From: an uncultured Lachnospiraceae bacterium
GTDB lineage: Bacteria > Bacillota > Clostridia > Lachnospirales > Lachnospiraceae
Direction of reading: 5' to 3'
Length of the DNA stretch: 64,000 nucleotides
NCBI GenBank assembly: GCA_964450185.1
Contig: CAYVCL010000002.1
Location: forward strand, 8,482 to 72,481
Part shown: piece after piece, positions 3,172-63,518 of the stretch
Position numbering within the stretch: the first letter of the stretch is position 1
Layout: every line of letters starts with the position of its first letter
Notes under the pieces: generated by a model
The model's database searches: none
Seen by the model: only the letters and a program-made list of their open reading frames with translations
Told to the model about the DNA's origin: nothing
Made by a program: the position numbers and the translations under genes

Positions 3172-3174
3172 GGA

Positions 3175-7560: not shown

Positions 7561-7574
7561 ATCTACCTCCAATG

Positions 7575-40020: not shown

Positions 40021-40259
40021 TGACTTGCCTCCTTATTTTGGTTACACCAAGAAACATTATAACAAAGATATTATCTTTTATAAAGCAAAATTCACAATTT
40101 TTTAAAGAACTTTAAGAATTTAGATTTATCTTGTCGCTTTTTTCCTTTAAATTTCAGGTGGTTATTAATATTTTTTTTCATTAGTTTATGTTTTGTTGCT
40201 TTCTTTATTCTACTTTGCTAAAATATTTTCAAATGTTTTTAGTAAAGGAAGGAACTTTT

Positions 40260-40916
40260 ATGCATATCAAAATTATTACGATTCCATCGACACTCAACTA
40301 TTCCCATCTGCTTTCCTATCTCCCACTTATATCTAAGGCTCGCCAAGAAAAAATTTCAAATTACCAACATGAACCCTCCAAAATTACGTCCCTATTGAGT
40401 GAACTTCTTATTCGATATACTATATGTCATCAACTACACCTAAAAAATACTGATATTACCTTTTTTACAAACTCCTATAGAAAACTTTTTTTACAGAATG
40501 TATCAAACTTTCAATTTTCATTATCTCATTCTCAAAATGGAATTGCCTTTGCTTTCCATCATCTTTCTATGCCTATAGGTATTGATATAGAAGAAATTTC
40601 GGCACCTCATTTTGATATTGCCAAACGTTTCTTTACCCAATCTGAAAATGATTATATCCATTCTCATCAAAACCCTACCGAAGCCTTTTATGAAATATGG
40701 ACCCAAAAAGAAGCTTATGTGAAAATGAAAGGAACCGGTTTCATTAACATTTCTCCATCTGATTTTGATGTCACCACACCTAAAAAAAAGCCCCTACTTT
40801 TCACACAAAAAGTAGGAACTTTTATGGTATCTTTGTGTCGTGAAGAAGCCATTACAGCCAAACCTGACATCGAAATGCTTTCCCTCCATCAGATACTTAC
40901 ATTTTTTACTGTTTAA
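40260..40916 (+). CDS. Sfp-type 4'-phosphopantetheinyl transferase
   Basis: Motifs GIDIEE and WTQKEAYVKMKG. ATG 40260 (AAAGGAAGG upstream) preferred over 40188. Its 3' end overlaps the convergent thioesterase gene by 11 nt. Confidence 0.85.
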   Translation: MHIKIITIPSTLNYSHLLSYLPLISKARQEKISNYQHEPSKITSLLSELLIRYTICHQLHLKNTDITFFTNSYRKLFLQNVSNFQFSLSHSQNGIAFAFHHLSMPIGIDIEEISAPHFDIAKRFFTQSENDYIHSHQNPTEAFYEIWTQKEAYVKMKGTGFINISPSDFDVTTPKKKPLLFTQKVGTFMVSLCREEAITAKPDIEMLSLHQILTFFTV

Positions 40917-41628
40917 CTTCATTTCTTTCTATTGTGGTTTGAATGATATTTAACATTTTTTCCTGATTTTCAAATTCCTCAAATAAAAAGAAGTGTCCAC
41001 CGTTTAATTCATGAAAAATCATTTTTTCTCCATACAGTTTTTTCCAATCCTCCATCTCTTTTTGAGGATACACCTCATTGCTACCACGAACAACAACTGC
41101 AGCACCTGAAATTGTCGGAATCTCTGTATCTGCCTTATAATGCTCAATCGCACTATAATCATTTACTACAATCTGTTTCATTAATTTCATCATTTCTTCA
41201 CATTCAAGAATTTCCTCCGGCGTCCCACCCATCTGAGTCAACAATTCTTTCACCTGCTCTACTGTCATGTTTTCACATTCCGTAAATTCCGGTTCTGTCC
41301 CAGGTGGTTCACTTGCAAGAAAAAAAACTGCTTCCGGCAAACGTTTTTTTTCCTTTTCTATCACTTTTAATAATTCATAGCAAACCAAACTTCCCATACT
41401 ATATCCTAATAAGCAATAGGCTTCCTCCAATTGTTCCTTCATGCTTCTATAAGCCTCCAATGCCATTTCTTCTATGCGATTTAATAATGGTTCCATAAAA
41501 CGAGCTCCATGTCCCGGATATTCGTATGGTATAATCTCAAACTCAGTTTCTACATTTTTACTCCATTCATAGAAAACATTTGCATTTCCCACAGCATACG
41601 GAAATGCAAAAATCTTTATTCTACTCAT
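40906..41628 (-). CDS. Type II (editing) thioesterase
   Basis: 240 aa alpha/beta hydrolase with the nucleophile elbow GYSMGS and C-terminal NGGHFF. ATGA overlap with the upstream gene. Confidence 0.85.
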   Translation of the reverse strand: MSRIKIFAFPYAVGNANVFYEWSKNVETEFEIIPYEYPGHGARFMEPLLNRIEEMALEAYRSMKEQLEEAYCLLGYSMGSLVCYELLKVIEKEKKRLPEAVFFLASEPPGTEPEFTECENMTVEQVKELLTQMGGTPEEILECEEMMKLMKQIVVNDYSAIEHYKADTEIPTISGAAVVVRGSNEVYPQKEMEDWKKLYGEKMIFHELNGGHFFLFEEFENQEKMLNIIQTTIERNEVKQ

Positions 41629-42407
41629 AAAATGGAAATGGCATAGATGATTGCCATTATTGTACCTGCTGCGACCATAACAATTCCTGTAATGCGGTTC
41701 ACCTTTACGGAATCTGTTCTATTAGCGTATCTCGAAGACCAAACTGCACCAATAGCTGTAAAAATAATACACAAAATCAACACCGGCCAACTGGCTACTT
41801 TACTTACGGTAAAGTGTGTAATTGCTCCTAATAATGCTGTAAATGTCATAATAAACACACTGGTTCCGACTGCCTTTTTCAGACTGTATCCCATAAAGAT
41901 AGTTAATGCAATTAGCATATTCATACCTCCACCAGAACCTGTAATTCCACAAATCAACCCAATCCAGATTCCCGAACCTACCGCCATAATAATGTTCCAC
42001 ACTTTCGAACGATTTTTATTTCGTTCACTTTCCTCTGAGGATGGTTTAATAATAAATTTTAAACCCATTAGAATTAATAAATAAATGGACACATTTCCCA
42101 TCACGGTTTGTGGAAAAAAAGAAGCGATATAACTACCAATTAAAGTTGCTGCCAAAACTGCTATCATCATATAAATACTATTTTTAATATCAATGTTCTT
42201 CTGCTTATGATAAATAATTGCTGAAAATGCGGAGGCAAGCACATCAGAAGCAAGGGCAATTCCTACCGCATCATATGGTGAAATTCCTAAAAAAGTAATT
42301 AGGAACGGACTAATAATAACTGCCGCTGACAGTCCAGCAAATCCTGTTACAACACCGGCTCCAAGACCTGCTACTGCACACACTATAAGTATTGTTAACA
42401 TTTTCAT
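41625..42407 (-). CDS. TSUP (TauE/SafE) family membrane permease
   Basis: 260 aa with 7-8 TM segments and internally duplicated halves with G-rich helices (GLGAGVVTGFAGLSAAV / GITGSGGGMNM). Lies between NRPS-B and the thioesterase. Confidence 0.7.
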   Translation of the reverse strand: MKMLTILIVCAVAGLGAGVVTGFAGLSAAVIISPFLITFLGISPYDAVGIALASDVLASAFSAIIYHKQKNIDIKNSIYMMIAVLAATLIGSYIASFFPQTVMGNVSIYLLILMGLKFIIKPSSEESERNKNRSKVWNIIMAVGSGIWIGLICGITGSGGGMNMLIALTIFMGYSLKKAVGTSVFIMTFTALLGAITHFTVSKVASWPVLILCIIFTAIGAVWSSRYANRTDSVKVNRITGIVMVAAGTIMAIIYAISIL

Positions 42408-42413
42408 TTACTC

Positions 42414-45400
42414 CTATTCTTTATAACCTAATACTACTAATACATCTTCTATCTGTTTCTTCGTAACCTTTGGCCATTCAAAACCCAATCGCGTTAATAT
42501 TGCACAAGTTTTATCATTCTTATATTGATATGCAAGTGTCTGCTTAATTTCTCCATCTGCCATTGTTAAAGTTAAAAGATGTGACATATCGTTGCTTAAT
42601 TCTTTCAAATGTCCGAATACATATTCAAAAAATGCTTTTATTTCCATGATATTTACATTCATTTCGTTTTCTCTGCAATACTGTGCGAAACGTCCTAAAC
42701 TCATACGGTCTGAATTAAAAATATGATAAATATGACCTTTTTCTTTTACTTTCATAAGTGCAAATACTGCCTTCGCCGCATAATCAACATAGGTCATATC
42801 GAACATTTCTCCCCTCATGTCGGGTACGTGTCCGATACGCAATATAGTTTCTAACATTTGGAATAAGGCATTTTCTTCCGCATTCATCTGAAAAATTCCT
42901 CTTTCGTAGCTTTGTACCAAAAATCCCAAACGGAAAATTTTTACCCTCTTTCCACTTTGTTGCATTTTTTCCACAATTTCTTCTGCATTAATTTTGGATT
43001 GAATATAAAAATTATCTGATTTTTCTCCAACACTGGTGTAATCTTCCGTGTATGCAACATCCGACTCGTTTCTTCCTAAAGTATATCCTGCCGACAAGGT
43101 AGAAATAAATATAAATTGTTTTTCTCGCCCTTGTTCCATAAGCTCTGCAACATGCTTTGTTCCCTGAATATTTATTTTTTCAAATACGGACCATAAACCA
43201 TAATGTTTCACAAGCGTTGCTGCATGAATGATACAATCTACCTTCTCACCGAGCCATTGATACGTTTCTTCTTTCATACCCATCCGTTCATCCGAAACAT
43301 CTCCCTCAAGCACTGTAATACGATGCTTAAATTCTTGATACAAATTTCTTTCCGGAACATAAAATTTCAAAGCATTTTCAAAGCGTTCTTCTACTGTTTC
43401 TTCTGTTTTAGTTGCACGTATCAAAGTTGTTACTTTTGCATTGGTTTGCAATAAAATTTCCACAATTAAATGTGCTGCAAAAAATCCGGCTCCTCCGGTA
43501 ATAAAATAATGTTCAAAGTCATCTGTCTGTTGGAATGAAGGAGCTTGATATTTCATCTTATATTTCTCATATGCTTCTGTAAAATATGCCGTAGCCTGAT
43601 AAGATTCCATCATTTCTACCCATTCTTCTAATCTTTGGGCATTTTTCAAATCCATATTTTCACTAAAAACTGCCACTTTTGCTATTTGTTCAATTGTATT
43701 ATATCGGAAAATATCCGGTAATTGAATTTTTAATCCTTGCTTTTCTGCCATAGAAATGAATTTCATTCCTTTGATGGAGTTTCCGCCAAGTTCAAAGAAA
43801 TTTTGTCTGACACCTATATTTTCTCTTTCCAAAACCTGTTGCCAAATCTGTAAAATCAGATTTTCTTTTTCATTCTCCGGCTGCATATATCTGGTATCCT
43901 CTTCCACTTTTACCATTGGAAGTGCCTTTCTATCTACCTTTCCATTGACACTTAATGGAAACTGTTCCAATTTTACAAACGCCGATGGTATCATATATAC
44001 TGGAAGCGTCTTTTCTAGTCGCCCCTTTAATTTTTGTAAATCAACACTATCTTTTGCTCTTTCTGTATAGAATAACACTAAACAAGTATCCGCCTTCTCC
44101 TGTTTTTGCACAACAACAACCGCATCCTTAACTGTTTCTTCTTCGGTTGCTTTTGCTTCGATTTCTCCTATTTCAATACGAAATCCCCTGATTTTTACCT
44201 GACCGTCTATTCTGCCTGTAAATTCAATGTATTCTCCATGAAATATTCCTGTATCACCGGTTCGATATATACGACCATAATCCGGATGCTCTACAAATAC
44301 TTCTTGTGTTTTTTCCATATCGTTGATATATTCTTTTGCAATGCCAATACCCCCAATGCAAATTTCTCCACGTACACCGTTTGGACATAATTGCATTTGT
44401 TCGTCCATAACATATATTTGTTGATTCTTCAATGGCATACCATAAGGAATGCTTTTCCACTTTGCTTGTAAAGATTTAGGAATCGGATAATAAATAGACC
44501 AAATGGATGCCTCCGTAGCACCGCCCAAACTGGTTACATTAGCTTTTGAAAAATGTTTTCTTATCTGTTCCGGAAGTTTTAATGGAATCCAATCTCCACT
44601 AAGTAATATATTTTTTAAGGTATCATTTTTACAATCTTCCTGTATAGTCAAAAACATCTCTATTACAGCCGGAACCGAATTCCAAAATGTTACTTGTTCT
44701 TCTTTCAACAAGTGTGCAACTTCTTTTACATTTCTCTGTTCCTTTACCAATGCCAATTTTGCCCCTGTAGAAAATGCTCCAAAAATATCATACACAGATA
44801 AATCAAATCCAAATGATGACAACCCAATCAGACAATCGCTTTCTGTTACTTCAAATTTCTCATTAATATCTGCAACCGTATTGGCAGCTCCATTCTGAGT
44901 AATGACTACTCCTTTGGGCTGTCCTGTACTTCCCGAAGTAAAAATAACATACGCAACATCTTCCGGTCTTACATTTTCAGCCTGATAACTTCTGCAATTC
45001 TTTATTTCTACATCATTTAAAAAATCTTCTTTTATGACTAACCTACATTCACTATGCCGGATTATGTATTCCCTTCTTTCTTCCGGATACTCCATATTAA
45101 TTGGCACATATGCACAGCCATATTTCAATACCCCTACAATATAAATAAGTGTAGATATCTGTCGATGACCTTCTATTGCAATATATGATTTTTTTGGTAT
45201 TTTCTTTTCTTGTAATCTATATGCTACTTCATCTGATAAGCGTTCCAATTCATAATAAGTCAGCCTTTTATTATCTGCAACAACAGCTATATTTTCAGAA
45301 TATTTTGAAAATGCCTGTTTCATCATATCGTTTAATGTCAGTTGCTTCTTCTGGTATAACGCCTGTGCTTCTTCATAGGTATCATTATATTTCTGATATT

Positions 45401-48400
45401 GTTCTTTTACATATTCAGGTAATTGTATTTTTCCCTCTTCTTCTGTTCCAATACTATTTAACAATTCTATATATTGTTGAAACATTCCATCAATTTGTTC
45501 TTCTTCCCAAATTTCCATCGGATAATCCCACACAATAGATAGCATTCCGTTTTTTTCTGTTACCTGATTATCCAGATATACCTGTGGCGTTCGGGAGATA
45601 GAATAAGTTTCTTCCAATAATGAATATTTCACTTTTTCATCTTCTGAATATAATGCACAGGTAAAAATATATGGCATTGCCGCTTTCGTTCCTAATGCAT
45701 ATTTATTTGAAATATCCCTTATAAATTCCACACCGCTGTAATTGCTATGCTCCAAAGTTTCCACCAATGTCTGATTCGTTTTCTCTACTTTGTCCCAGAA
45801 ATGTTTTTTCTCTCTAAAATCCATTTCTACTAACATAATTCTGGTAAAATCTCCAACCAACTCCGCAACCTGCGGGTTAAATGCATAACGATCAAACACG
45901 GTTAAATCTAATGCAAAGTGATTTTGTCCACTCCAATGCTCCAATATCACTCCATACGCTGTACACAAGATTGCTGCTGGTGTTACCTGATACTTAACTC
46001 CTAATCTTTTAATGGTTTCCCACTGTTTCTTTTCAAGGAGTATACTTTTTCTTTGAAATGTTGGTATTTTTCCTTTCACACTTTCTGTATCTACTACTAA
46101 AGCAGGGGCTAATGGAAATTCATCGATTTTTTGCTTCCAATACTGTTTATCTTCTTCATAAATCTCTGATTCTTTCAATTTCTCCATTGCCACGCAGTAA
46201 TCTCTAAAAGTAAATTCTGATTCCTTTACCTCCAACTGTGTATCTTGATAATAAGCCATCAATTCCCGTTCCACCATCAGCAAGCTGGCAGCATCTACAA
46301 CTAATATGTCAATTCCAAAACAAATTTTAACTCTTGTTTCACTTAAGCGATACGCTTCCATTCGAAACAATGGCCATTGTTCTAAGTCAAAAACCTCCTC
46401 TGACATTTCTTTACGAATACTCTTTAATATATTTTCCTGCTCCTTTTTTGATAACGTTGAAATGTCATGATATGGAATTTCATACTTCTCTACTGTTTTC
46501 AGAATTTTCTGAGAATTCCGACTTGATAATACCGTTCGTAACATTGCATGTTTTGCAATTACCTTATTGAGAGCCTCTTCCATTCTTTCAATTTCGACAT
46601 TACCATCCAACTCCGTATAATAATGTGTAGAAAATCCTCCTAATTCAAACTCTACACTTCTTCCCATAATGTATGCCTGCTGTATTTCATTACACTGGAA
46701 TTCTTCATACTTTTCCTTCGTGTTAGGTTTTACATATTTCAAATGTTCCGGCAACAGTCTTTTTTTACGAATTCCGGTTCCATCATCAGCGTCAATCATG
46801 GCACTTAATGCTTTGATTGTCTGATTTTGATACAGCTCTGAAAGACTAAAAAACAATCCCTTTCGCTCGCCTTGTGCCACCAATTTCATGCCTTTTATAG
46901 AATCTCCACCTAATACGAAGAAGCTTTCATTAACTCCTATTTCTTGCCTACCAAGCACCTCACTCCATAAGAGTAACATTCTTTCCTCTGTATATGTGGT
47001 TGCGCATTCTTTTCCTATATTATTCTGGGCCGCCATTATCTTCAACGAATTTTTATCTACCTTTCCGCTTTCTTTCATCGGAAATTCATCTAATCGAATC
47101 AATACTGTTGGTATCATATATTCCGGCAATAAACATTGTAATTTTTCTAGTATCTTTTGTTGTGACTGTTGCTTTGAGGAAATATAGAATGCCCCCATAC
47201 TCTTATCACCACTTGCTTCTGTCTGATATACGACTACTTCCGCAGCATCTATCTCCTCCATTCCATTCATCGCATTCTGAATTTCTTCCAACTCTATACG
47301 AAAGCCCCTTATTTTACATTGATTATCTTTTCTCCCAATAAAATACAGACTGCCATCTTCATCCTCCCAAACATAATCTCCTGTAGAATACAAACGTTCC
47401 TCTGAGATTTCCGGAATCCTTACAAACTTTTCATTGGTTAATTCTTCATTTCCAACATACTCTAATGCAACTCCCGCACCGCCAACATAAAGCTCTCCAG
47501 GCAGGTTTTTGCATTGAAGATTTCCAAAGCAATCCACAACATATCCCGAACTATTATCTAACCTTTTGCCAATAGGTAATGGATTGGTATCGTTTTCCTT
47601 TACTAAATGCCATGTAGAACACACTGTATTTTCTGTTGGTCCATATGCATTGATTATCATTGCTTCTTTATTTATCTGTGCAGCCCTTTTACCTGTTTCG
47701 AAAGAAAGAACATCTCCACCGGTAAATATGTATTTCATACCATCGAATATTTTTGCATTTTCTTGTACCATCTTAGTAAACAACGGTGTCGAAAAAAAGC
47801 CGGCTGTTATCTTTTCTTTTTTTATTATTTCTCTTAAACGTTTCAAATCCAACAGTTCTTCTTTTTCAACAATTCTTAAACTCCCTCCATGCAATAATGC
47901 TTCATACATTTCTAACGTTGAGGCATCGAATGCCGGTGTACTTGCCTTTATAAATTTATCTTCTGATGTAAGCTGCACCAATTCTTGCCCAAACACCAAC
48001 CGAATAATTCCTTTTTGAGAAATCAATACGGCTTTGGGTGTTCCGGTTGAACCAGAGGTACACATAATATACGCTGGTGCCTCTGCTGTGATTTCTACTT
48101 GTTTTGGCTTATTTTCACTAACCTGTAATTTTACTTCAAGAATTTGATAGTCTTCCAAATAATCCACACTACTCTTAGATACTGCCATAATACAGCCACT
48201 ATTTGGTATTACATTTAACATTTTTCTCACTCGTTCTTGTGGTGCTTTTGAATCTATCGGGAGATATACTCCTCCTACCTTTAAGACTGCTAAAATAGCC
48301 ACTACCATTTCTATCGAATTTTCGCCATGTAAAATTACTACATCACCCTTTTTTATACCACACTGCTGTAATGCATAAGCGTTAGTTTCTATATATTTTT

Positions 48401-49859: not shown

Positions 49860-49878
49860 TTTTCTTCTCCTCGTGTTT

Positions 49879-50106
49879 CTAATCAAGTAACTGTTCTAAA
49901 ATAAATTCCATCTCATCTTCTTCCTGCTTTTTTAGTTGCCCCATTTCCTCCAACAACTGCTTTATCCACTGCTTTGAGAATAACCTTTTATCATAAGAAA
50001 GTTTCCAACATATCTGCTTATCTTCCACAAAAGCAACAACTGATAATGCTGCAATTCCTTCACCTTCTTCTGATACATTCTGCCCCACCTCTACCTGCTC
50101 TACCAA
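49879..50106 (-). pseudogene. C-terminal 75 codons of the NRPS-A epimerisation domain, cut off by an in-frame TAA
   Basis: Same reading frame as NRPS-A, directly after the TAA at 50107-50109. There is no ATG (the track start is TTG) and no SD. The sequence (…ALSVVAFVEDKQICWKLSYDKRLFSKQWIKQLLEEM…) is the expected continuation after the FNYLG motif. Confidence 0.65.
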
Positions 50107-53100
50107 TTATCCATAATTTTTACTATCAATGCTTCCCAAATAATTAAAATGAATTAACACAGGATAATCCTCAAATTCCGGTTCTGCCTGAAGAATAGCA
50201 AAACCCTTTCCTTTTTCCGGTACTTTACCCAATGTGTCATGAACTATATTTACCACACTATCTATATTTGCTTCTTGGCTTAATCCTTCAAATATTACGG
50301 GATAAGTATAACTAAACCAACCCATGGTATTTTGAATATCAATGTCATTACGCTCATCCTCTCTCCCATGATATTCCATTTCTACCATAATTCCATCTCT
50401 ATTACTCAATTTGGAAAATGCCTTTAAGAATACTGCCAACAGATATTCTTCTATATCTTTTCCCGGCAATATAGACTTTTCTCCTCTTTGTTCTATCCTC
50501 TTCAATTCGAATTCCCTTACTCCGTCCAGTAGCTGCCATGATTTATTTAGCTCCAATCCCTTTTTCAATACATCAAGCCAATAATCACTATCCTTTTGTG
50601 TTGTTTTTTTCATATACGCAGCCCACTCCATATATGAAGTTTCTGCCTGATAATTTCCTATCGTTTCTCCCTGCTTTCGCTTCGTATAGATTTCCACAAA
50701 ATCATTTAATAATAATCTCAATGACACACCATCCGTAAGCAAATGATGAACAAAGAAATACAGTTTTGCTTTTTGCTTCCATTCATAATAAGCAATACCT
50801 AATAATGGTCCTTTTTCTATGTCAAATTTACTTTCAAGCAAATCATTTTCTCTTTGAATTTCTTCTTCTGATTCTATCTTTTTATAACAAAAAACATAAC
50901 TTTTTTTCAAAAAACTTCTATCTCTTGTGCTACTTTCAAATTGATTTCCTTTTTTTACAAATACCGTTCTTAACACATCATGATATTTTAACAAATCCTC
51001 AATGGTTTCCTGTAACACAACTTCTTGTAATCTTTCCGTTAATGTAATACTTATATACTGATTCCAACGATTTCTTCCCTGTTTGATTTTACGGAAAAAC
51101 CACTGTTGAGCTGGGGTTATCGGATACGTTCCCTGTACATCCTGATACTCTTTTACACCATTATATTTTTTCATAATTGTTGCTAACAATTCTATCGTTG
51201 CATGTGTATATAATTCTTTCATATCCACTTGATATCCTAATCGCTTTAATGCGGAAAGAATTTGTATCGCTTTAATGGAATCTCCTCCTAAGGAAAAAAA
51301 GTTTTGATTTACTCCAATCTCTTCGATTCCAAGAATTTGTTTCCATAACTGCAACAATAATTTTTCTTCTTCATTTTTCGGTGTATGCAGTACATTTTCT
51401 TTGTATTTCATCTGCAATAATTTCGTCCTGTCAACCTTTCCATTACTTGTTAATGGCATTTCAACAATCTCCACTAATTGAGAAGGGATCATATAAGCCG
51501 GCAATTTTTTCTCTAACGCATTCCGAATCTCCAGTTCGCTCTGTTCTTTTGACAAACAATAGAAAGCAAGAATTCTTTTGAATTGTTCTCCTTCCACCAA
51601 CACACAGGCTTCTTGTATTCCTGCAATTCCAAGTAATGCCACCTCAATTTCTCTGGTTTCAATCCTATAACCATTTACCTTTACCTGCGCATCTCTCCTT
51701 CCCAAAAACTCAATCTGTTCATCACATCTATGCATTTTTCCGTAATCACCTGTATGATAAATCCTTCCAAATGGTGCTTGGTTTTTAAACGCTTGTTCCG
51801 TTTTTTCCTTATCATTTAGATATCCGTCCGCTACGCCAATGCCTCCAATACAAATTTCTCCTGTAACTTCCGGTGGACAAAGTTTTCCTTCTTCATCCAG
51901 TACATATATTTTCTGATTATCTAATGGTGAACCATAGGGAATGCTATTCCACTGCTCTTTTACTTCATCAATCACATAAGCTATAGACCATATAGAAGCC
52001 TCTGTCGCACCTCCTAAGCTTACTACTCTTGCATTTTTGAAGCACTGCTTCAATCTTCCCGGTAATGTCAGTGGAATCCAGTCACCGCTCAAAAAAAAGT
52101 ATCGCATTTTTGAATACGCATACTCTTGCTTTCTTTCACTCAACAATAATTCACATAATGCCGGAACAGAATTCCAAATAGTAACACCTTCTTCCCGACA
52201 TAACTTTTCCAATTCTTCCCCATTTTTTTGTTCCTGTACAAGTACTAAAGTAGCACCTGCAAAAAATGTACCAAACACATCATATACCGATAAGTCAAAA
52301 CACAACGAAGATATTCCTAAAATCACATCTTTTTCATTTACTTCAAACCTCGCATTCATACTTTTAATTGTATTTACTGCAGATTGATTTGATATAACCA
52401 CTCCCTTAGGTTCTCCCGTACTACCGGACGTAAATATCACATATGCAGGACGTTCCCAATCTTTCTTTGTCCCTTTTTCCAATAATACTATTTTTTTATT
52501 TCCATTATTTTCCAATTTCGTCCAGTCGAAAGGTTCTAATAAAATTCTACTCTGACTTTTCTTCAATATGAATTCTACCCTTTCCTTTGGATATTCTTCT
52601 AATATTGGAACATATGCCGCTTTACATTTTAAAACTCCAAGAATATTCAAGAGTGTACTAATATCACGTCTTGCACTGACTCCAATATATTCCCCCGGTT
52701 CCACTCCATTTTCTAATAATTGTTCTTTGATTTGTTCTGATAAATTCCACAATTCTTCGTATGTAATTTCTTCTTTATCGCTTTTTATTGCAATTTTTTT
52801 AGGAGCTTTGCAAACGCCTTGATAAACTAACTCCACTAATGTTTCCGGCTCCCATTTTTGTTCTGTTTGATTATAATTTTTCCATAATTCTGCATCTTCT
52901 GGAAGCAATTGAAATATATCCGAATCAGCCTTTCCCAGACTTTGCTCAAGCAATGCTATCATCTGATTTCCCATGATTTTTAAAGATTTTTCATCCATGT
53001 ATTCTACTGCATAATCCCATGTGACAAGAAGTTTTCCATGATATTCCGTTGCCTGACAATCCAACATAACCTGAGGTGTCTGACTTATTCCATATTCTAA

Positions 53101-54213
53101 CTCCCCAAAGAAATCCAAAATTTCAAAAGGATCTTCTTTAAACAGCATACTGGTAAATACAATTGGCATAATTGCCTTTGTCCCCATATTTCGCTGTCTG
53201 GAAAGTTCTCGCATGACCTCTATTCCATTAAAAGTATTATGTCGATATGACAATAACATTTCTCGGGATACTTGCTTTGCTACTTCAAACAAACCTTTGT
53301 CTTTGTAAAATCCCTGCTCTATTCCCACTAACAATGCCGTTGTATAATCACCTACCAACGTGTTTTCCTTATATTTACCTCGTTCGGACATAGTCAGATT
53401 GATTGTAAAATCTTTGTTTTCGCTCCATTTCCCCAACACCATAACATATGCTGCGAGTACTATGGATGTTGGTGAAAGCCCTTTCTGTTCTGCGCGTTTT
53501 TTTATAAACTGCCATTTATCTTTTTCAAGATTTAATGTAATTCTTGAAATCGGACTTACCAACTCTTTTTCTGCATTTTTTGTTTGTTTTGGCACCGGAA
53601 GTACCGGTGCCATCGGAAGTGTATCTAACTTTTTCTGCCAATACATCTTGTCTTTTTGATAGCGTTCTGATTGCTTTAACACTTTTTGCTTCTCTATATA
53701 TTCTTCATAAGATGCTGTTAAAACTTCCACTTCTTTATAGGGACAATTATAATATTTTTCTAGTTCTCGTCCAATCAGACACAAGCTACTGCTGTCCGCA
53801 ACCAGCATATCAAAAGAAAGAAGTAACACATTTTTTTCTTCTCCCATTTTTATATAAAGAAAACGATATTGAGGCCATACTGCCGGGTCTGTGCTTTCTA
53901 AAAACATCTCTACCCTTTTTTCTTTCAAAATTTCTTCTTTTTTGGATTTTTCTTCCTTTTGTAAATCAAGGATTGGTATCTGATATCTCGGAACTTCTTC
54001 CATAATCATCTGCTCATTTTCATTAAAAATACGAGCTCTTAACATTCCTTGTTGCTTAATCACTTTATTCATTGCCTCTTCCAATTTATTCGGGGCTAAT
54101 TCTGTCCTAAATTGATAGCATATATGTGTCGATGTGCCTCCAAGTTCAAACTCTTTCCGCCTTCCCATATAATAGGCTCTTTGAACGTCTGACAGTTCAA
54201 ATATTTGCTTCAT
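50107..54213 (-). CDS. NRPS-A: Cy - A(Cys) - T - E (E domain interrupted by a stop codon)
   Basis: Approximate domain ranges in nt:
- Cy 52909-54213 (LSDVQRAYYMGR at residue 7, FDMLVADSS).
- A 51424-52851 (FTSGSTGEPKGV, FDLSVYD, SGDWIPL, LGGATEASIWS), with code DLYNLSLIWK = Cys.
- T 51169-51381 (GGDSI).
- E from 51141 (PITPAQQWFF, HHLLTDG, EYHGRE, GWFSYTYP, FNYLG). Confidence 0.9.
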   Translation of the reverse strand: MKQIFELSDVQRAYYMGRRKEFELGGTSTHICYQFRTELAPNKLEEAMNKVIKQQGMLRARIFNENEQMIMEEVPRYQIPILDLQKEEKSKKEEILKEKRVEMFLESTDPAVWPQYRFLYIKMGEEKNVLLLSFDMLVADSSSLCLIGRELEKYYNCPYKEVEVLTASYEEYIEKQKVLKQSERYQKDKMYWQKKLDTLPMAPVLPVPKQTKNAEKELVSPISRITLNLEKDKWQFIKKRAEQKGLSPTSIVLAAYVMVLGKWSENKDFTINLTMSERGKYKENTLVGDYTTALLVGIEQGFYKDKGLFEVAKQVSREMLLSYRHNTFNGIEVMRELSRQRNMGTKAIMPIVFTSMLFKEDPFEILDFFGELEYGISQTPQVMLDCQATEYHGKLLVTWDYAVEYMDEKSLKIMGNQMIALLEQSLGKADSDIFQLLPEDAELWKNYNQTEQKWEPETLVELVYQGVCKAPKKIAIKSDKEEITYEELWNLSEQIKEQLLENGVEPGEYIGVSARRDISTLLNILGVLKCKAAYVPILEEYPKERVEFILKKSQSRILLEPFDWTKLENNGNKKIVLLEKGTKKDWERPAYVIFTSGSTGEPKGVVISNQSAVNTIKSMNARFEVNEKDVILGISSLCFDLSVYDVFGTFFAGATLVLVQEQKNGEELEKLCREEGVTIWNSVPALCELLLSERKQEYAYSKMRYFFLSGDWIPLTLPGRLKQCFKNARVVSLGGATEASIWSIAYVIDEVKEQWNSIPYGSPLDNQKIYVLDEEGKLCPPEVTGEICIGGIGVADGYLNDKEKTEQAFKNQAPFGRIYHTGDYGKMHRCDEQIEFLGRRDAQVKVNGYRIETREIEVALLGIAGIQEACVLVEGEQFKRILAFYCLSKEQSELEIRNALEKKLPAYMIPSQLVEIVEMPLTSNGKVDRTKLLQMKYKENVLHTPKNEEEKLLLQLWKQILGIEEIGVNQNFFSLGGDSIKAIQILSALKRLGYQVDMKELYTHATIELLATIMKKYNGVKEYQDVQGTYPITPAQQWFFRKIKQGRNRWNQYISITLTERLQEVVLQETIEDLLKYHDVLRTVFVKKGNQFESSTRDRSFLKKSYVFCYKKIESEEEIQRENDLLESKFDIEKGPLLGIAYYEWKQKAKLYFFVHHLLTDGVSLRLLLNDFVEIYTKRKQGETIGNYQAETSYMEWAAYMKKTTQKDSDYWLDVLKKGLELNKSWQLLDGVREFELKRIEQRGEKSILPGKDIEEYLLAVFLKAFSKLSNRDGIMVEMEYHGREDERNDIDIQNTMGWFSYTYPVIFEGLSQEANIDSVVNIVHDTLGKVPEKGKGFAILQAEPEFEDYPVLIHFNYLGSIDSKNYG

Positions 54214-54215
54214 TT

Positions 54216-56420
54216 TTATTCTCTTCCTTTCAAAACTTCTACCATGGAAATATGATCAATTTTCTTATTCAAGAACAGATATATGAAAAAGTATGCTACT
54301 ACACCTAAAATCACACACAGAATTGCCGAAAACATACTTAATTCAAAATCCATAAATCCACGGAAGCTTGCATTTAACACAGGCCACATTTCACACATTA
54401 GTACCTTATCTAAAGGAACTGCTATTACAAGCCCGAAAAGAAGCACCCAAAAGGTAGCTCCAAAATACAAGCTCTTTATTTCTTTTGGTAAATATCCTAA
54501 AATTTTCACAAGAGATATATCTGCTACATTACGTTCAATTACTAATTTCAATAACAAAAACAATAGGACCAGAAAAATAATTATCCCTCCTGCTATCAGC
54601 ATTAAGACAGTCGCTGACATCATATCAAAATAATTTCGTGCCGCTTCCATTAAAGATTCTCTAGTTACAACAGAATTCAGGTACATACTTTCAATAGACA
54701 ATTCCTGTTCCGATAAATATCCATTAAAGGTAGATTCCTCTTGTCCTAATAACTGATTCAAATTTTCTCTCTCCATAAATGCATATAACCCTGTTGCATA
54801 TGGTACGATTTCTACTATTTTTAATTTGTATTCTTCCTCCACCGAATCTTTCAGAACAATAATTTCATCTTTTTTTAATTTGAATTTTTTTGCCGTTGCA
54901 TCTGAAATAATAATTTCATTTTCTTTTAAATCTTTTATCTTTTTATCAAAATAGCTACTTTCCCTCGGCAACCCCATAATAGTTACCGCCATGTCTTCCT
55001 CTCCTATTTCAAAATAGCAGTCCAAACTCTTCAAATATATCTTTTCACAATCTTCTTCCACTTCAATTGGTGCCTTTAACAAATACATATTTTCACATAA
55101 AATAGTATCTTCTACCTCTGACACATAATTCCGAATGCTATCATACATTCCCAATCCCATAACTAACATAAATACAGCCAGTATGATACCTGCAATCAAA
55201 ATCAGATAATTTCCTATTTCACATAAGAATACACGAATCTTAAACCTTGTTGAAAATCTTCCATGAACCAAATTATATTCGCGTGCCTTTTCCTTTTTTA
55301 AATCATTCCGAAGCATTCGCAATGGTTTTACATTCAATGCCTTATTTAAGATGACATAATTTATCACAAGTACTAAAATAAACGGATAAATCACAGCTAT
55401 AATCACACACATCGGTTTTACTGATAAAATTAATTTTGGAATACAGTAGAATCCGTACGAAGCTGCCACTAATGATTTCGTAATTCCAAACACTCCCATT
55501 ACCCAGCCTAATACAGAGCCAAGTATTGTGATTGCGGTTGGCAATGCAATATAATTTGCAATTAATTCTTTTTCGAAATATCCTATTGCATATAAGGTGC
55601 CTATTTCTTTACATTCCTCTTGTACCTTTTTCTTTCCCATAATACCAAGAAGAAATGCAATAATCACGATTACCAGAAATCCAATCATCATTCCCATTTT
55701 TTTGTCTGTATCCAGCTTCGAGGAAATCCCACTAATTCGTGGATTATTCACACGCTCCATCAAAGAATACTCTATTTGTTTTTCCTCTAAATACTCCTTT
55801 AATATATTCATTTCGCCTACAAAGGAATAATTTAACGACAATTCTTCTTTTTCATAAGTTTCAAAGACTTCCTTTGTTACAAATCCAATTCCAAATACAG
55901 CTGCATCAACATTAGAAGAAGTATATTGTTCTAAAATATAAATATACTCTGGAACAGCCCCAAAGCCTGTAATTGTATATACTTCCTTGCCAATCTCAAT
56001 TTCATCCCCCACTGCATATCCATTTTCTTCTGCAAACAGAGGATCAATTACAATTTCTCCAACTTTTTCTATACTTCTTCCTTCTACTATAGATATTGTA
56101 TTAATTTTATCTCTTTTTTGAAAAATTCTAATTTTCTGTTCTTCTTTGATAATTTTCTCCGTATAAGCTTCTAATTCTATGGAAATTCCAAGTTCTTCCA
56201 ATTCTTCTATCCAGCTTTCCTTCAACTCTGACATAACCCGAAAACTGCCATCTTCAACACAGTTTTCTTCATTCATATTCGTAATGGTAGCTTCAATACT
56301 ATCTGCCGAACACATAAATGCCGACATAATACCAATGGCTACAATAACTAACAAAAAGATTCCCATATATCTAGCCAGATTTGTATAAAATTCCCGAATA
56401 ATTCTCATTCCTGTTTTCAT
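54216..56420 (-). CDS. ABC transporter permease with two FtsX/MacB-type domains
   Basis: 734 aa with two repeats of TM, a large extracytoplasmic domain, then 3 TM. Directly downstream of the ABC ATPase. Confidence 0.8.
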   Translation of the reverse strand: MKTGMRIIREFYTNLARYMGIFLLVIVAIGIMSAFMCSADSIEATITNMNEENCVEDGSFRVMSELKESWIEELEELGISIELEAYTEKIIKEEQKIRIFQKRDKINTISIVEGRSIEKVGEIVIDPLFAEENGYAVGDEIEIGKEVYTITGFGAVPEYIYILEQYTSSNVDAAVFGIGFVTKEVFETYEKEELSLNYSFVGEMNILKEYLEEKQIEYSLMERVNNPRISGISSKLDTDKKMGMMIGFLVIVIIAFLLGIMGKKKVQEECKEIGTLYAIGYFEKELIANYIALPTAITILGSVLGWVMGVFGITKSLVAASYGFYCIPKLILSVKPMCVIIAVIYPFILVLVINYVILNKALNVKPLRMLRNDLKKEKAREYNLVHGRFSTRFKIRVFLCEIGNYLILIAGIILAVFMLVMGLGMYDSIRNYVSEVEDTILCENMYLLKAPIEVEEDCEKIYLKSLDCYFEIGEEDMAVTIMGLPRESSYFDKKIKDLKENEIIISDATAKKFKLKKDEIIVLKDSVEEEYKLKIVEIVPYATGLYAFMERENLNQLLGQEESTFNGYLSEQELSIESMYLNSVVTRESLMEAARNYFDMMSATVLMLIAGGIIIFLVLLFLLLKLVIERNVADISLVKILGYLPKEIKSLYFGATFWVLLFGLVIAVPLDKVLMCEMWPVLNASFRGFMDFELSMFSAILCVILGVVAYFFIYLFLNKKIDHISMVEVLKGRE

Positions 56421-56430
56421 AAACTTTCTC

Positions 56431-57138
56431 CTACCATTCTAATTCTTCCGGCTTCTTTACTTCTTCATTATGTATAAGCTTCATATTCACGCCATCCTTA
56501 ATTTTCACAACCCAATCTCCCATCTCCTTGATTGCTTCATTATGAGTAACCATTAGTATGGTCATTCCATACTTTTCTTTTACTTTATTCAACAATTTCA
56601 AGATTTCTATAGACATATTATGGTCTAATGCCCCTGTAGGTTCATCGCAAATAAGAACTTTTGGATTTTTTGCCAAAGCTCTTGCAATTGCTACTCTCTG
56701 CTGTTGTCCTCCTGATAAATGTCTTGGAAACTTTTTTTGATGCTCTGTTAATTCCAAAACTTCCATCAACTCATCAATATCTAATGGATTTTTTGCCAGA
56801 TTTTTTCCTGTTTCAATATTTTCCTTTACGGTAAGATTTGATATTAGATTATAGAACTGAAAAATATGTCCCAGATATTCTCGTCTGTAATAGGTAAGTT
56901 CCTTATTGCTCATTTTCGCAATATCCACCCCATCAAAAAGAATACTCCCAGCATCTGCACTTTCTAAGCCACCAATCAAATTCAATAAGGTTGATTTTCC
57001 GGAACCGGAAGGACCTAAAATAACAAACATACTTCCTTCCTCTATTTCTAAATTTACCCCCTTTAAAACCGCTGTACGATTTTCTTTTTCCCCATATTCT
57101 TTTCTTAAGTCCTCTATTTTGTACAATACTTTCTTCAT
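56431..57138 (-). CDS. ABC transporter ATP-binding protein (MacB/LolD type)
   Basis: Walker A GPSGSGKST, signature LSGGQQQRVAIARAL, Walker B VLICDEPT. ATGA overlap with the radical SAM gene. Confidence 0.92.
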   Translation of the reverse strand: MKKVLYKIEDLRKEYGEKENRTAVLKGVNLEIEEGSMFVILGPSGSGKSTLLNLIGGLESADAGSILFDGVDIAKMSNKELTYYRREYLGHIFQFYNLISNLTVKENIETGKNLAKNPLDIDELMEVLELTEHQKKFPRHLSGGQQQRVAIARALAKNPKVLICDEPTGALDHNMSIEILKLLNKVKEKYGMTILMVTHNEAIKEMGDWVVKIKDGVNMKLIHNEEVKKPEELEW

Positions 57139-58397
57139 CTTTTTTCCTCACTTTCATATACAAATTTTTCATAGAATACTGCACTTTTTCCAGATACAAC
57201 ATATTCTGCTGCAACTCGTTTACTCTCTTCCCGACTAATCGGAGTTCTAGACGTATCAACATTCATTTTCTTCATAATTGCTCCCACTTTTCGTCCATAA
57301 CACGTTTTTCCTGCGTTCTTAAAATACTTTTCCATCTGTTCAAAAATATCCTTGATGGATTCTTTATATACATTACCAAACGAAAGCGGTACTGCTACAC
57401 ATGGAGTAATTTCCCCATCATTATTTACCGAAATATAGCCTGCTCCTGCAGAACACCCAAAACAATAGGCACTTTCAAATTCAGAAAACAGCACAATAAT
57501 TGGCGCACTCTCCTCTTCCAAATATTTTGCTCGCATTTGATTTACCATTTTCTTTGCTTCCACATAATTAAATTTTACCGCCGACCCCTCTATTTTCCCT
57601 TGAGGAATCGGCATAACAACCCTAATTTCCTGCACGCCCAAAGTTTTTACAAATTCAAAATATTCCTCCATGTCTTTCAATGTAAATTCTTCTAAAATGC
57701 AAATAGTAAGAACTGTATATATTCCATTTTTCACAAGTAATTCTACCGCTTGTATGGTTTCACGAAATGCATTTTTGTTATTTCTCGTTTTTATCACAAA
57801 TTCTTCTTTATGAAAATCCAAGCTAATAATGATACGATCCATATTACTGTGTTTTAACATATCACAAAATTCCTGAGTAATATTATGTCCCGTTGTATAA
57901 AGCTGTCCTCTGATTCCATCCGGAATCTTTTCAATCAGCTCATTAATATCTTCTCGCAACATCGGCTCACCACCAGTAATTCCCATTGTAGCTACACCCA
58001 TATCATATGCATCTTTATAGATATCCCAAATAGTTTCTCGCTTTAAATCTTGTCTACAATGCTTTATTCTATAACAATGCCAACAATTACAATGACATCT
58101 TCCCGTAACTACTACGTCCAACTGATATAACTGTCGCTTTTTATCCTGAAATCGTTCTAGCGATTCTAATAAACGCTCCCATGCCTTTGATGGAAATGCC
58201 GGAAAAAAACTATTTAAAAAATATTCTCCTGTTCTTTGGTTATAAATCAGTTTTTCATTTCTGCTTTCCCAAAAATTTGCGATTGCATTTGTCATTTTAT
58301 TTTTTGAACTGTTAAGAATTATCTCTCTAATTTCTGTAGCATCTACAATTTTTCTAAATTCCGACATTCTTTTGTTTCCCTTCATTTCCGCTTTCAC
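57135..58397 (-). CDS. Radical SAM enzyme with a C-terminal twitch/partial-SPASM-like Cys motif
   Basis: CX3CX2C (GRCHCNCWHCY), GGEPML, and a C-terminal CFGCSAGAGYISVNNDGEITPC … CYG segment. There is an N-terminal extension of about 95 aa of unknown type. The start is ambiguous (GTG 58397, ATG 58385 or ATG 58367). Confidence 0.8.
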   Translation of the reverse strand: MKAEMKGNKRMSEFRKIVDATEIREIILNSSKNKMTNAIANFWESRNEKLIYNQRTGEYFLNSFFPAFPSKAWERLLESLERFQDKKRQLYQLDVVVTGRCHCNCWHCYRIKHCRQDLKRETIWDIYKDAYDMGVATMGITGGEPMLREDINELIEKIPDGIRGQLYTTGHNITQEFCDMLKHSNMDRIIISLDFHKEEFVIKTRNNKNAFRETIQAVELLVKNGIYTVLTICILEEFTLKDMEEYFEFVKTLGVQEIRVVMPIPQGKIEGSAVKFNYVEAKKMVNQMRAKYLEEESAPIIVLFSEFESAYCFGCSAGAGYISVNNDGEITPCVAVPLSFGNVYKESIKDIFEQMEKYFKNAGKTCYGRKVGAIMKKMNVDTSRTPISREESKRVAAEYVVSGKSAVFYEKFVYESEEKR

Positions 58398-58401
58398 AAT
58401 G

Positions 58402-58656
58402 CTAACAATTTTCTTCTTTCACTTGTGACATTTTTTCCTTAACTCGTGCTTTTAAATCCCCTACGGTCACAAACTCTGTAATATCAGCATCATCAAAATT
58501 AATATTTAATCTTTCTTCCAACTCCATGATTAAGTCTACATAATCTAAAGAATCCAAACCTAACTCTTCTGCAATTTTTGTTTCATCTGTAATTTCTTTA
58601 GCCTCTCTATCTATATAAGGCAACACTAATTCAATAAATAATTTATCTAATTCCAT
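58402..58656 (-). CDS. Stand-alone acyl/peptidyl carrier protein
   Basis: 84-aa acidic protein with the phosphopantetheine attachment site ELGLDSLDYVDLIMELE. GGAGGAAG RBS. First gene of the NRPS operon. Confidence 0.85.
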   Translation of the reverse strand: MELDKLFIELVLPYIDREAKEITDETKIAEELGLDSLDYVDLIMELEERLNINFDDADITEFVTVGDLKARVKEKMSQVKEENC

Positions 58657-58760
58657 TTTCTTCCTCCATCTTCTTATGTTCTAACATATAGAATTTCGAT
58701 ATGTTAGTTATGTATTCCTCTGGTTAGTCTTATCCTTTTATCGTTAGAATCAACTAACAA

Positions 58761-58789
58761 ATATTAGCACACAATAACCACTGCGTCAA
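58761..58789 (-). promoter_or_regulatory. Sigma-A-type promoter of the NRPS operon
   Basis: On the minus strand: TTGACG (58784-58789), a 17-nt spacer, then TGcTAATAT (extended -10; TAATAT at 58761-58766). It predicts a leader of about 95-100 nt. Confidence 0.65.
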
Positions 58790-58866
58790 GTATGGCTTTA
58801 TTTTCCATTCAACGAAACCTTCTTTCTACTACTTACTTCTATTCCAAAAGTAGTTCTGCATTTTTC

Positions 58867-58917
58867 AAAAAAATAGGGTGTTTTAAAAGTCATATTCTAA
58901 CTTTTAAAACACCCTAT
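58867..58917 (-). terminator. Rho-independent terminator of the OPT / PqqD-like operon
   Basis: 18-bp perfect stem ATAGGGTGTTTTAAAAGT (58873-58890) / ACTTTTAAAACACCCTAT (58900-58917). On the minus strand it is followed by a T-run (A-run 58867-58872). Confidence 0.88.
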
Positions 58918-58920
58918 TCG

Positions 58921-59295
58921 CTATTCCTTCCATCGAAGAAATGAATAACTATCTAATATCTGAAAATATTTCGCCAAACGCTCATACAAAGGCTCCGCTT
59001 TATCTCCGAAATGTTCTTTCACCAATACTCCTAATACAACGATATCTTTTTCGCCATCCAAAAGAGGCCATATAAAACTCCCCATCTCGTCTAAATGGAT
59101 ATGACTGATTTTTGGTCTGTGAAAAAGTATCTGTGCAAGTTTGTTAAACATCCCTTTATTTTCAATATCCAGAATAACCATTCCATTTTCATCCACAGAC
59201 CATGAAATTTCCTCCGGTCGCATAGGACGACGCTCCAAATAATTTTCTTTGCTTTTATTTTCTCTCTTCATATTTCCTATTTTCTCTTTTTCCAT
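58921..59295 (-). CDS. PqqD-family (RRE-like) small protein
   Basis: The C-terminal 70 aa (LDEMGSFIWPLLDGEKDIVVLGVLVKEHFGDKAEPLYERLAKYFQILDSYSFL) match the PqqD pattern (…g..iW.llDG..t…l…y…v..d…fl..L…g.l). The ATG at 59295 overlaps the OPT gene by 19 nt. Alternative starts are ATG 59271 and ATG 59223. Confidence 0.6.
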   Translation of the reverse strand: MEKEKIGNMKRENKSKENYLERRPMRPEEISWSVDENGMVILDIENKGMFNKLAQILFHRPKISHIHLDEMGSFIWPLLDGEKDIVVLGVLVKEHFGDKAEPLYERLAKYFQILDSYSFLRWKE

Positions 59296-61181: not shown

Positions 61182-61288
61182 ATACCTTCTCCTTCATTCT
61201 ATATTTCTAGTCCCTCACATTTTATCGAAAGTCCTCCTCATATGCAAGCAATAATCATGCAATACCATGTATTTCCAGTCTGTTTTAA

Positions 61289-62659: not shown

Positions 62660-62777
62660 TTTGTTCTCCTTTTTCTACTGCATCTTTTCATATAAATAGC
62701 TCTTTTGTCTTAAAAAGCACTATCCGTAGGATACCATAAAATCAAGCAAAACACAACTTAACACCTTTTTCTTTCTA

Positions 62778-63359
62778 ATGCATATTATAATACTAAACAT
62801 GAAATCAGGTATTTTTATGATAAACAGTATCTTTGCTCCAAATGCCGTTATTGAAAATATCACTTCTGACCGAAATGCAAGACTTGTGACAATTTCTTAT
62901 CGTAATTGTCCTAACTGCCCTAATCAACAGGTGGTTTTAGTTGTTGACAGAAATACACTAATCCAAAATGAGCGTGGTGACATCATTCCTTTTCGGGAGT
63001 TAGCTGTAGGCATGATAGTGAATGCCTCCTTCTCCTCTGCTATGACAAGAAGTATTCCCCCACAGGCTCAGGCTTTCCGAATCCGCATAGTACGTCGAAT
63101 GCCCGCCTATGAAACAACGACCGGACGAATTATTGAAGTAAATTCCAGAAACCGTTTCATTACCACCATGAGTCATGCCAATCCTTCTTCCATCATCCGT
63201 TTCAATATATCAGACGATACAGTTATTCTAAATCAACGGGGCAGAGCCATTCCTTTTTCCAGACTTATGCCCGGATTAAGGGTAAGTATACAGCATGCCA
63301 ACTTTATGACTGTCAGTATTCCACCGCAAACCACCGCTTTTGTGATACAACTGTTATAA
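62778..63359 (+). CDS. Hypothetical protein made of two tandem homologous domains of about 85 aa
   Basis: Internal repeat: …DRNTLIQNERGDIIPFRELAVGMIVNASFSSAMTRSIPPQAQAFRIRI… versus …DDTVILNQRGRAIPFSRLMPGLRVSIQHANFMTVSIPPQTTAFVIQL…. The start is uncertain (ATG 62778, 62799 or 62817). Confidence 0.5.
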   Translation: MHIIILNMKSGIFMINSIFAPNAVIENITSDRNARLVTISYRNCPNCPNQQVVLVVDRNTLIQNERGDIIPFRELAVGMIVNASFSSAMTRSIPPQAQAFRIRIVRRMPAYETTTGRIIEVNSRNRFITTMSHANPSSIIRFNISDDTVILNQRGRAIPFSRLMPGLRVSIQHANFMTVSIPPQTTAFVIQLL

Positions 63360-63378
63360 AAATGGTTTGCCGCAACTA

Positions 63379-63424
63379 ACTTACGGACTGCTTTCTGCCT
63401 TTCAGGAGAAAACAGTCCGTAAGT
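63379..63424 (+). terminator. Hairpin, possible terminator (weak T-tract)
   Basis: 12-bp perfect stem ACTTACGGACTG (63379-63390) / CAGTCCGTAAGT (63413-63424) with a 22-nt loop. The downstream sequence CGCATTTG is only weakly T-rich. Confidence 0.4.
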
Positions 63425-63429
63425 CGCAT

Positions 63430-63458
63430 TTGACACCTGTATCCTTGCACACTATAAT
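63430..63458 (+). promoter_or_regulatory. Consensus sigma-A promoter
   Basis: TTGACA (63430-63435), a 17-nt spacer, then TATAAT (63453-63458), 60 nt upstream of the ATG at 63519. Confidence 0.7.
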
Positions 63459-63518
63459 ATTTCTTGAACAAAAACAAACGCTTTTTTGTGTTTGCCATTT
63501 TACGTTAAGGAGATATTT

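Follow-up and report, generated by a model that had tools for sequence, protein, structure and literature searches.

In a 64,000-nucleotide stretch of contig CAYVCL010000002.1 from an uncultured Lachnospiraceae bacterium (hereafter the window, whose positions are used unless another contig is named), we found a genomic island of 18.8 kb that encloses the whole of a nonribosomal peptide synthetase (NRPS) cluster. We consider it probable that this block, 40122-58920, was gained by horizontal transfer and holds one operon of an uncharacterised NRPS family together with its own 4'-phosphopantetheinyl transferase (PPTase), that intact members of the family encode a bis-thiazoline line, and that the copy in the window is broken.

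The island was delimited by blastn of two sister contigs (L031 and L032) against the window: homology ends at 58921 and returns at 40121/40122, which sets its limits. The cluster is absent from the gene tables of relatives L031-L034, and in relatives with a 98% or 90% identical PBP1A the genes for SNF, OPT and a PqqD-like open reading frame (ORF) are followed directly by PBP1A, with no island. The GC content of the island is 34.4%, against 38.2% in the remainder of the window. Terminal direct or inverted repeats, an integrase and a transposase were sought at the island ends and none was found. A 97.7%-identical copy (L005, L006) has an upstream neighbourhood unlike that of the window, so the island occupies at least two genomic contexts, and two more distant orthologous operons lie in other contexts again, one of them adjoining an IS110 transposase; on the L002 contig, IS110 transposase genes are found downstream of NRPS-B. 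The PBP1A of the window has its best named match (82%) in a Lachnospiraceae metagenome-assembled genome (MAG), named genera reaching 62-64% only.

The initial annotation had read NRPS-A as a single ORF (49879-54213) and taken the operon as intact, and neither reading held. An in-frame TAA at 50107-50109, eight codons past the FNYLG motif, divides the gene into 1368 and 75 aa; it is a derived nonsense mutation that truncates the epimerisation (E) domain and removes the C-terminal tail. With the stop repaired, the E domain aligns with the solved structures 2xhg, 5isw and 9rde up to query residue ~400, and the stop falls at residue 349. The window copy thus lacks a complete E domain (about 430 aa including the C-terminal strands): by ending NRPS-A 76 codons early, the stop costs it ~50 residues of the fold and a tail of roughly 22 residues, which, we infer, carries the docking element for hand-over to NRPS-B. 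A Logan assembly of SRR17221345 (L001), 100% identical to the window over 11.7 kb, has NRPS-A divided in the same way (1368 + 75). The corresponding codon is GAA in L004 (a 99.9% identical contig) and in L005 (97.7% identical), and stop-codon reassignment was therefore rejected. More distant orthologues are longer: at 62% identity the protein has 1438 aa in nearly all 26 cluster members (15 listed), including WP_288885485.1 from an 'uncultured Eubacterium sp.', and at 49% identity it has 1445 aa in six of seven members.

In the NRPS-A cluster at >=90% identity, all six members fall short of full length, and the lesions differ from copy to copy (Table 1). When the window is compared with L005, every gene has a ratio of nonsynonymous to synonymous substitution rates of 0.10-0.23, so the genes were under purifying selection until recently. 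Taken together, the damage is most likely recent and the lesion in the window part of a repeated loss of the cluster in this lineage. Given the broken near-identical copies and the truncation of NRPS-A, the window copy is most likely a recently inactivated one, from which the predicted product is most probably not made. It is very improbable that the lesions of the sibling copies are assembly artefacts and the pattern of decay is unreal. L004-L006 were assembled automatically, in Logan, from metagenomic or unknown runs, and internally similar segments of NRPS genes can mislead assemblers, but the deletion junctions share only 2 and 13 nt, which we judged too short for a k-mer mis-join. Moreover, the 1192-aa truncation of L006 is shared by two distinct proteins encoded on separate contigs (P0122, P0125), a 26-bp deletion and a point mutation are unrelated to repeats, and the stop codon of the window is independent of these three assemblies.

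A functional operon in the window, in which the stop is tolerated, is a minority variant, or is irrelevant since the truncated NRPS-A still epimerises and docks with NRPS-B, seems to us unlikely. All seven core motifs of the E domain lie upstream of the stop, the remaining genes are intact and under purifying selection, and the operon is bracketed by promoter-like and terminator-like sites. Yet the stop is present in two assemblies, and what is missing comprises a structurally defined part of the E fold as well as a tail that intact orthologues always keep. In addition, independent inactivating lesions in every sibling copy, together with the island-free sister genomes, indicate that the cluster is dispensable in this lineage.

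The domain logic proposed for the two synthetases, Cy-A(Cys)-T-E followed by a DCL-type C-A-T-Cy-A(Cys)-T-R (C, condensation; Cy, heterocyclisation; A, adenylation; T, carrier; R, reductase; DCL, accepting a D-configured donor), was upheld by profile and structure-database searches. Both Cy-A-T modules have BmdB as their best PDB match (7ly4, E = 5.8e-224, for NRPS-A; E = 1.4e-257 for NRPS-B), and the PDB matches of the two Cy domains comprise BmdB, EpoB, Irp2 and PchE. The Cy signatures (DxxxxD in place of HHxxxDG, xxQxAYxxGR, GD[FY]T, VFTS/IFTC and QVxLD) are found in both domains and kept in three lineages. Specificity codes were read by alignment to GrsA-PheA, for which the control gave DAWTIAAICK. 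Both cysteine codes had been called canonical; this is exact for the second A domain of NRPS-B (DLYNLSLIWK in the window, the Eubacterium sp. operon and the L002 lineage), but NRPS-A of the window reads DLYNFSLIWK, nine of the ten positions, its Eubacterium orthologue having the exact DLYNLSLIWK. Across lineages the Cys positions are constant and the middle code, that of the first A domain of NRPS-B, differs (DALFFGAVCK in the window, DALFFGGTFK in Eubacterium sp., DALFIGFVVK in L002); no specific amino acid could be assigned to DALFFGAVCK.

The E region of NRPS-A is best matched in the PDB by the E domains of BacC, TycA and GrsA, and E motifs including HHLLTDG and EYHGRE are present. We observed some variation in these motifs: the active-site motif is NHMLTDG in the Eubacterium NRPS-A (L029 10001-14317) versus HHLLTDG in the window and L002, and the last residue of the EGHGRE-type motif is N or D, not E, in the two orthologues (Eubacterium and L002). 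The first C domain of NRPS-B carries LSPLQQGMLFH and has its best PDB matches in SrfA-C, TycB1 and the post-E C domain of BacC (bacitracin synthase 3), all of which we take to be acceptors of D-configured donors; motif and closest relatives therefore support assignment to the DCL type. Its active-site motif, HHIILDA, has Ala for the Gly of HHxxxDG in all four sequences compared, and so appears to be a conserved change and not a lesion. The terminal R domain matches PF07993 (NAD_binding_4, 4.3e-44), keeps TGGAGFF and YIQSK in three lineages, and aligns with the C-termini of the AusA and MxcG NCBIfam models at scores far below their cutoffs.

The operon opens with a stand-alone acyl carrier protein (ACP) and a radical S-adenosylmethionine (SAM) enzyme. 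Of the roughly 110 relatives of the latter, which show 23-78% identity, not one carries a functional name. In their alignment C91, C95 and C98 of the CxxxCxxC cluster are invariant, as are C223, C305, C323 and C356, and Pfam returned a SPASM match (6.9e-07). Foldseek with an AF2 model (pLDDT 90) gave SkfB, SuiB, BlsE, PqqE and CteB as best neighbours at a TM of about 0.55, that is, generic SPASM/twitch proteins from which no function could be assigned. A profile search of genome contigs recovered 21 distant loci, at most of which the radical SAM gene stands beside that of an acyl-loading or condensing enzyme (KASIII-like, an acyl-AMP ligase or a C-A-T-TE module), in several cases with an ACP gene too; related ABC/FtsX genes are often nearby, as is a TetR regulator, and the ABC ATPase of the window is 41-42% identical to those adjoining the radical SAM relatives in L008, L011 and L012. 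The window island and Sporomusa have no separate loading enzyme, and an NRPS module starting with Cy or C follows instead. These neighbourhoods lead us to infer a portable pair, most likely the starter supplier, in which the radical SAM enzyme would act on a group bound to the ACP and the ACP would hand on the starter. Examples of the cassette among L007-L027 are L011 9305-15457, L012 9319-15448, L022 9627-15039 and L009 2536-5784, and its hosts are scattered and mostly anaerobic (Pseudoramibacter, Pseudobutyrivibrio, Butyrivibrio, Chlorobaculum, Sporomusa, Paenibacillus and various MAGs).

Two other partners for the radical SAM enzyme were considered and rejected. A hidden precursor of a RiPP (a peptide that is ribosomally synthesised and then post-translationally modified) was sought upstream of the ACP gene and in the operon, where no plausible small ORF was found, the conserved neighbour being the ACP. 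The other was a PqqD-family ORF similar to RiPP recognition elements (124 aa, 58921-59295, minus strand; 30.6 bits, above the Pfam cutoff), which abuts the island upstream and shares its sequence in part with the end of the gene for the OPT transporter. Relatives without the island keep it beside OPT, so its adjacency to the radical SAM gene looks coincidental, and a strong terminator lies between it and the operon.

It may also be that ACP, radical SAM enzyme, ABC ATPase and FtsX permease are a separate unit that merely shares the operon and yields a small acyl-ACP-derived metabolite with its own exporter, the NRPS being supplied by a different donor, such as Cys put onto the ACP in trans or a fatty acyl-ACP that primary metabolism provides, and the radical SAM enzyme having no role in it. 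In Pseudoramibacter, Pseudobutyrivibrio and Butyrivibrio loci (L011, L012, L026) the set occurs without any NRPS, and the nearest structural neighbours of the enzyme are peptide maturases, not known NRPS partners. However, KASIII is always present in those three loci, an AMP ligase or a C-A-T-TE module replaces it elsewhere, and in the island only the NRPS can do so. Three lineages, at 48-66% identity and in different genomic contexts, share the order ACP-radical SAM-ABC-FtsX-NRPS-A-NRPS-B(-TE), and the Cy domain that opens NRPS-A needs a carrier-bound donor. We therefore regard a separate unit as quite unlikely, and prefer a starter-supplying role for the pair. Whether this extends further is more speculative: one possible, though doubtful, reading would make the radical SAM enzyme, with an ACP dedicated to it, a new carrier-protein-dependent radical SAM system of anaerobes, which builds or tailors an unusual acyl starter on the ACP for interchangeable use by KASIII, an acyl-AMP ligase, C-A-T-TE or a bis-thiazoline NRPS. 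If true, such a system would define a family of undescribed metabolites.

Several points weigh against our interpretation as a whole. None of the nine island genes encodes an enzyme that would obviously load the ACP, and what ties the radical SAM enzyme to the NRPS is gene order. The confinement of four lesions to NRPS genes is not in itself significant, because about two thirds of the operon consists of these genes. The window probably derives from a MAG, in which case TAA is a population consensus and a GAA subpopulation is possible. Finally, the truncated E domain could retain some activity, or the line could run without epimerisation, although the latter is argued against by the DCL type of the C domain.

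The eight co-directional minus-strand genes (40906-58656) and the convergent PPTase gene lie essentially where the initial annotation had placed them, as judged by ORF listing and translation, and Pfam supports every gene assignment (NCBIfam and the PDB were searched as well). All motifs quoted in it were found in the translations (FDMLVAD, DILVVD, GGDSI, PITPAQQWFF, HHLLTDG, EYHGRE, GWFSYTYP, FNYLG, LSPLQQGMLFH, HHIILDA, GGNSI, TGGAGFF and YIQSK). The tight spacing it described applies to the 4-nt overlaps of radical SAM/ABC and TauE/thioesterase and to gaps of 2-10 nt, but not to the 19 nt between the NRPS-A remnant and NRPS-B. Likewise the radical SAM gene stands, but the GTG start proposed at 58397 is less likely than an ATG at 58367 (410 aa, as called in the public record). 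Exact-sequence look-ups of the radical SAM protein (from the GTG) and of the thioesterase returned no match; that of NRPS-A did. The FtsX permease, with the ABC ATPase, is a predicted exporter or means of self-protection. According to gene tables, the TauE permease belongs to the operon version of the window lineage and is missing from that of Eubacterium sp. The end of the PPTase gene overlaps the thioesterase stop by 11 nt, and the best NCBIfam model of the PPTase is AusB, at 90 bits against a cutoff of 225.

Table 1. Features of the island and its operon, and lesions in near-identical copies (window positions)
Feature	Position	Strand	Evidence or remark
Genomic island with cluster	40122-58920	.	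blastn boundaries, gene tables of relatives, GC
Strong terminator hairpin of preceding unit	58872-58918
Promoter-like site upstream of ACP gene, TTGACG-17-TAATAT, extended TG	58761-58789	-	consensus match only
Stand-alone ACP, 84 aa, LGLDSLDYV	58402-58656	-	Pfam PP-binding 1.7e-11; best NCBIfam AcpP-type ACPs
Radical SAM enzyme, SPASM/twitch-type C-terminal Cys set, CHCNCWHC motif	57135-58367	-	Pfam Radical_SAM + SPASM
ABC ATPase, MacB/DevA/LolD-like	56431-57138	-	Pfam ABC_tran 1.3e-36; NCBIfam
FtsX-family permease, 734 aa, two FtsX stretches	54216-56420	-	Pfam FtsX x2
NRPS-A truncated ORF, 1368 aa	50107-54213	-	Pfam Condensation, AMP-binding, PP-binding, Condensation
NRPS-A domains (approximate)	Cy 54207-52894; A(Cys) 52878-51409; T 51360-51181; E (incomplete) 51138-50110	-
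Premature TAA, derived G-to-T change at 50109	50107-50109	-	relatives read GAA (Glu)
In-frame 75-codon remnant, last part of E domain and NRPS-A C-terminal tail	49879-50106	-	aligns with tails of intact orthologues and, after repair of the stop, with solved E domains
NRPS-B, 2481 aa	42414-49859	-	Pfam Condensation/AMP-binding/PP-binding/Condensation/AMP-binding/PP-binding/NAD_binding_4
NRPS-B domains (approximate)	C 49838-48546; A1 48497-47025; T about 46988-46794; Cy 46706-45432; A2 45314-43938; T 43859-43677; R 43502-42450	-
TauE/SafE (TSUP) permease	41625-42407	-	Pfam TauE 3.5e-40
Type II thioesterase, GYSMG	40906-41628	-	Pfam Thioesterase 3.8e-33; conserved in Eubacterium sp. operon
Terminator-like hairpin downstream of thioesterase gene, inside 3' end of convergent PPTase gene	40786-40823	-	pattern match only
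Sfp-type PPTase, convergent	40260-40916	+	Pfam ACPS + AASDHPPT_N
Lesion, window and L001	50107-50109		GAA-to-TAA nonsense
Lesion, L004	41921-50045		8125-bp deletion: all of NRPS-B, most of TauE, NRPS-A tail
Lesion, L005	51251-51277		26-bp deletion in NRPS-A T domain, frameshift, 1008 + 447 aa
Lesion, L006	48604-50659		2056-bp deletion across NRPS-A/NRPS-B junction

Some features of the surroundings were recorded in passing. Between the window and the 99.9%-identical L004 there are nine differences in all, two of which (58780 and 58782) fall within the promoter-like site of the ACP gene. In L005 and L006 (1-3474 of each), as compared with window 58681-64000, a second pair of ABC ATPase and FtsX permease genes replaces the PqqD-like, OPT and SNF genes. 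Elsewhere (61-7581, minus strand) the window encodes a type I restriction-modification system (HsdR 61-3171, HsdS 3175-4446, HsdM 4446-6254), which is directly adjoined by an ISL3-family transposase gene (6235-7581), and a ComEC-type competence gene with Competence and Lactamase_B domains (10868-13000) that may bear on DNA uptake in this lineage.

Intact operons were found in the 'Eubacterium sp.' MAG lineage and in one other metagenomic lineage, and for these members of the family a route can be proposed in which the domain content comes from the searches, the order of events and the product being read from established NRPS logic. The PPTase would prime four carrier domains, and the stand-alone ACP would hold a starter acyl group presumably made or tailored by the radical SAM enzyme. 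Within NRPS-A no carrier precedes the opening Cy domain; this domain would couple the starter to Cys and cyclodehydrate it to a thiazoline, the alpha-carbon of which would then be inverted by the E domain. The DCL-type C domain of NRPS-B would take the D-configured intermediate and add a hydrophobic residue that depends on the lineage, the second Cy-A(Cys)-T module would form the second thiazoline, and the terminal R domain, of the short-chain dehydrogenase/reductase type, would release the chain reductively as an aldehyde, or as an alcohol after a second reduction. The type II thioesterase may act in proofreading, and the ABC/FtsX pair may export the product or protect the producer. A starter-(D)-thiazoline-X-thiazoline scaffold with reductive release, as first suggested, is thus the natural reading for intact family members, but not for the broken copy of the window: with part of the E fold and the tail of NRPS-A lost, the full product is probably not made, and at most a shunt product of module 1 might be released. 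The choice between aldehyde and alcohol, like that between protease inhibitor and chelator as a function, is a guess.

If the intact orthologues are active, they would yield a new scaffold, acyl-D-thiazoline-X-thiazoline-aldehyde/alcohol, from uncultured Lachnospiraceae and Eubacterium-type anaerobes, groups from which, to our knowledge, few NRPS products are known. The most original element is the putative ACP/radical SAM starter pair, which recurs in about a hundred protein clusters without assigned chemistry. The repeated independent inactivation of the cluster and the presence or absence of the island suggest that its product is costly or only conditionally useful. A caution also follows for genome mining: cluster predictors that merge both NRPS-A fragments would list as a producer what is probably a recent loss-of-function variant.

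The cluster had been described as an orphan, and this description stands: we found no characterised counterpart in the NCBIfam equivalogs or the searchable literature. Literature searches returned no paper on the NRPS cluster or on the radical SAM/ACP cassette, and that cassette is absent from a 2026 review on radical SAM enzymes that modify lipids. Its parts come from known families; it is the combination of ACP/radical SAM cassette, canonical E domain after a Cy module, second Cy module and terminal R domain, as predicted from the genes, that matched no characterised system in these sources.

Among known systems, BmdB of bacillamide synthesis (7ly4, 5t3e) is the best solved match for both Cy-A-T modules of the island, with which it shares DxxxxD and Cys-type codes. 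In bacillamide synthesis Ala is the starting residue, the ring becomes a thiazole by oxidation, and the last step is amide formation with tryptamine. The island, in contrast, has no Ox domain; its first thiazoline is followed by a canonical E domain, there is a further thiazoline module, and release is reductive. Tandem heterocyclisation of Cys is shared with pyochelin (PchE/PchF) and yersiniabactin (HMWP2) synthesis, and the Cy domains of PchE and Irp2 are significant matches (7emy, 7jtj). In pyochelin the first thiazoline is likewise epimerised. Unlike these lines, the island has neither an embedded methyltransferase-like epimerase nor a separate thiazoline reductase, an R domain replaces the terminal thioesterase, and an amino-acid spacer lies between the rings. 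As regards the traits of aryl-capped siderophores, Pfam and NCBIfam revealed no domains for synthesis or activation of salicylate or dihydroxybenzoate and no aryl-carrier domain among the nine island genes.

What the island shares with AusA/AusB and with the dipeptide-aldehyde NRPSs of gut Clostridia is a Firmicute NRPS that terminates in T-R and has an Sfp-type PPTase dedicated to it; among NCBIfam models, NRPS-B matches AusA best and the PPTase AusB. The Lachnospiraceae are a family known from gut and rumen habitats. The aureusimine and gut Clostridia lines are bimodular, A-T-C-A-T-R, without Cy or E domains or an ACP/radical SAM pair, and give pyrazinones or dipeptide aldehydes. Against the AusA model (NF047350, cutoff 2500 bits), however, NRPS-B scores 1066 and NRPS-A 455, and the A-T-C-A-T-R architecture is not shared. 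Finally, the SPASM maturases SkfB, SuiB, CteB and PqqE are the closest neighbours of the radical SAM enzyme in sequence and fold, with CxxxCxxC and conserved C-terminal Cys residues in common. Yet the likeness is distant (TM about 0.55, identity 14-21%), and where those enzymes have a precursor peptide, for which the island has no gene, the conserved partner here is an ACP together with an acyl-loading or condensing enzyme.

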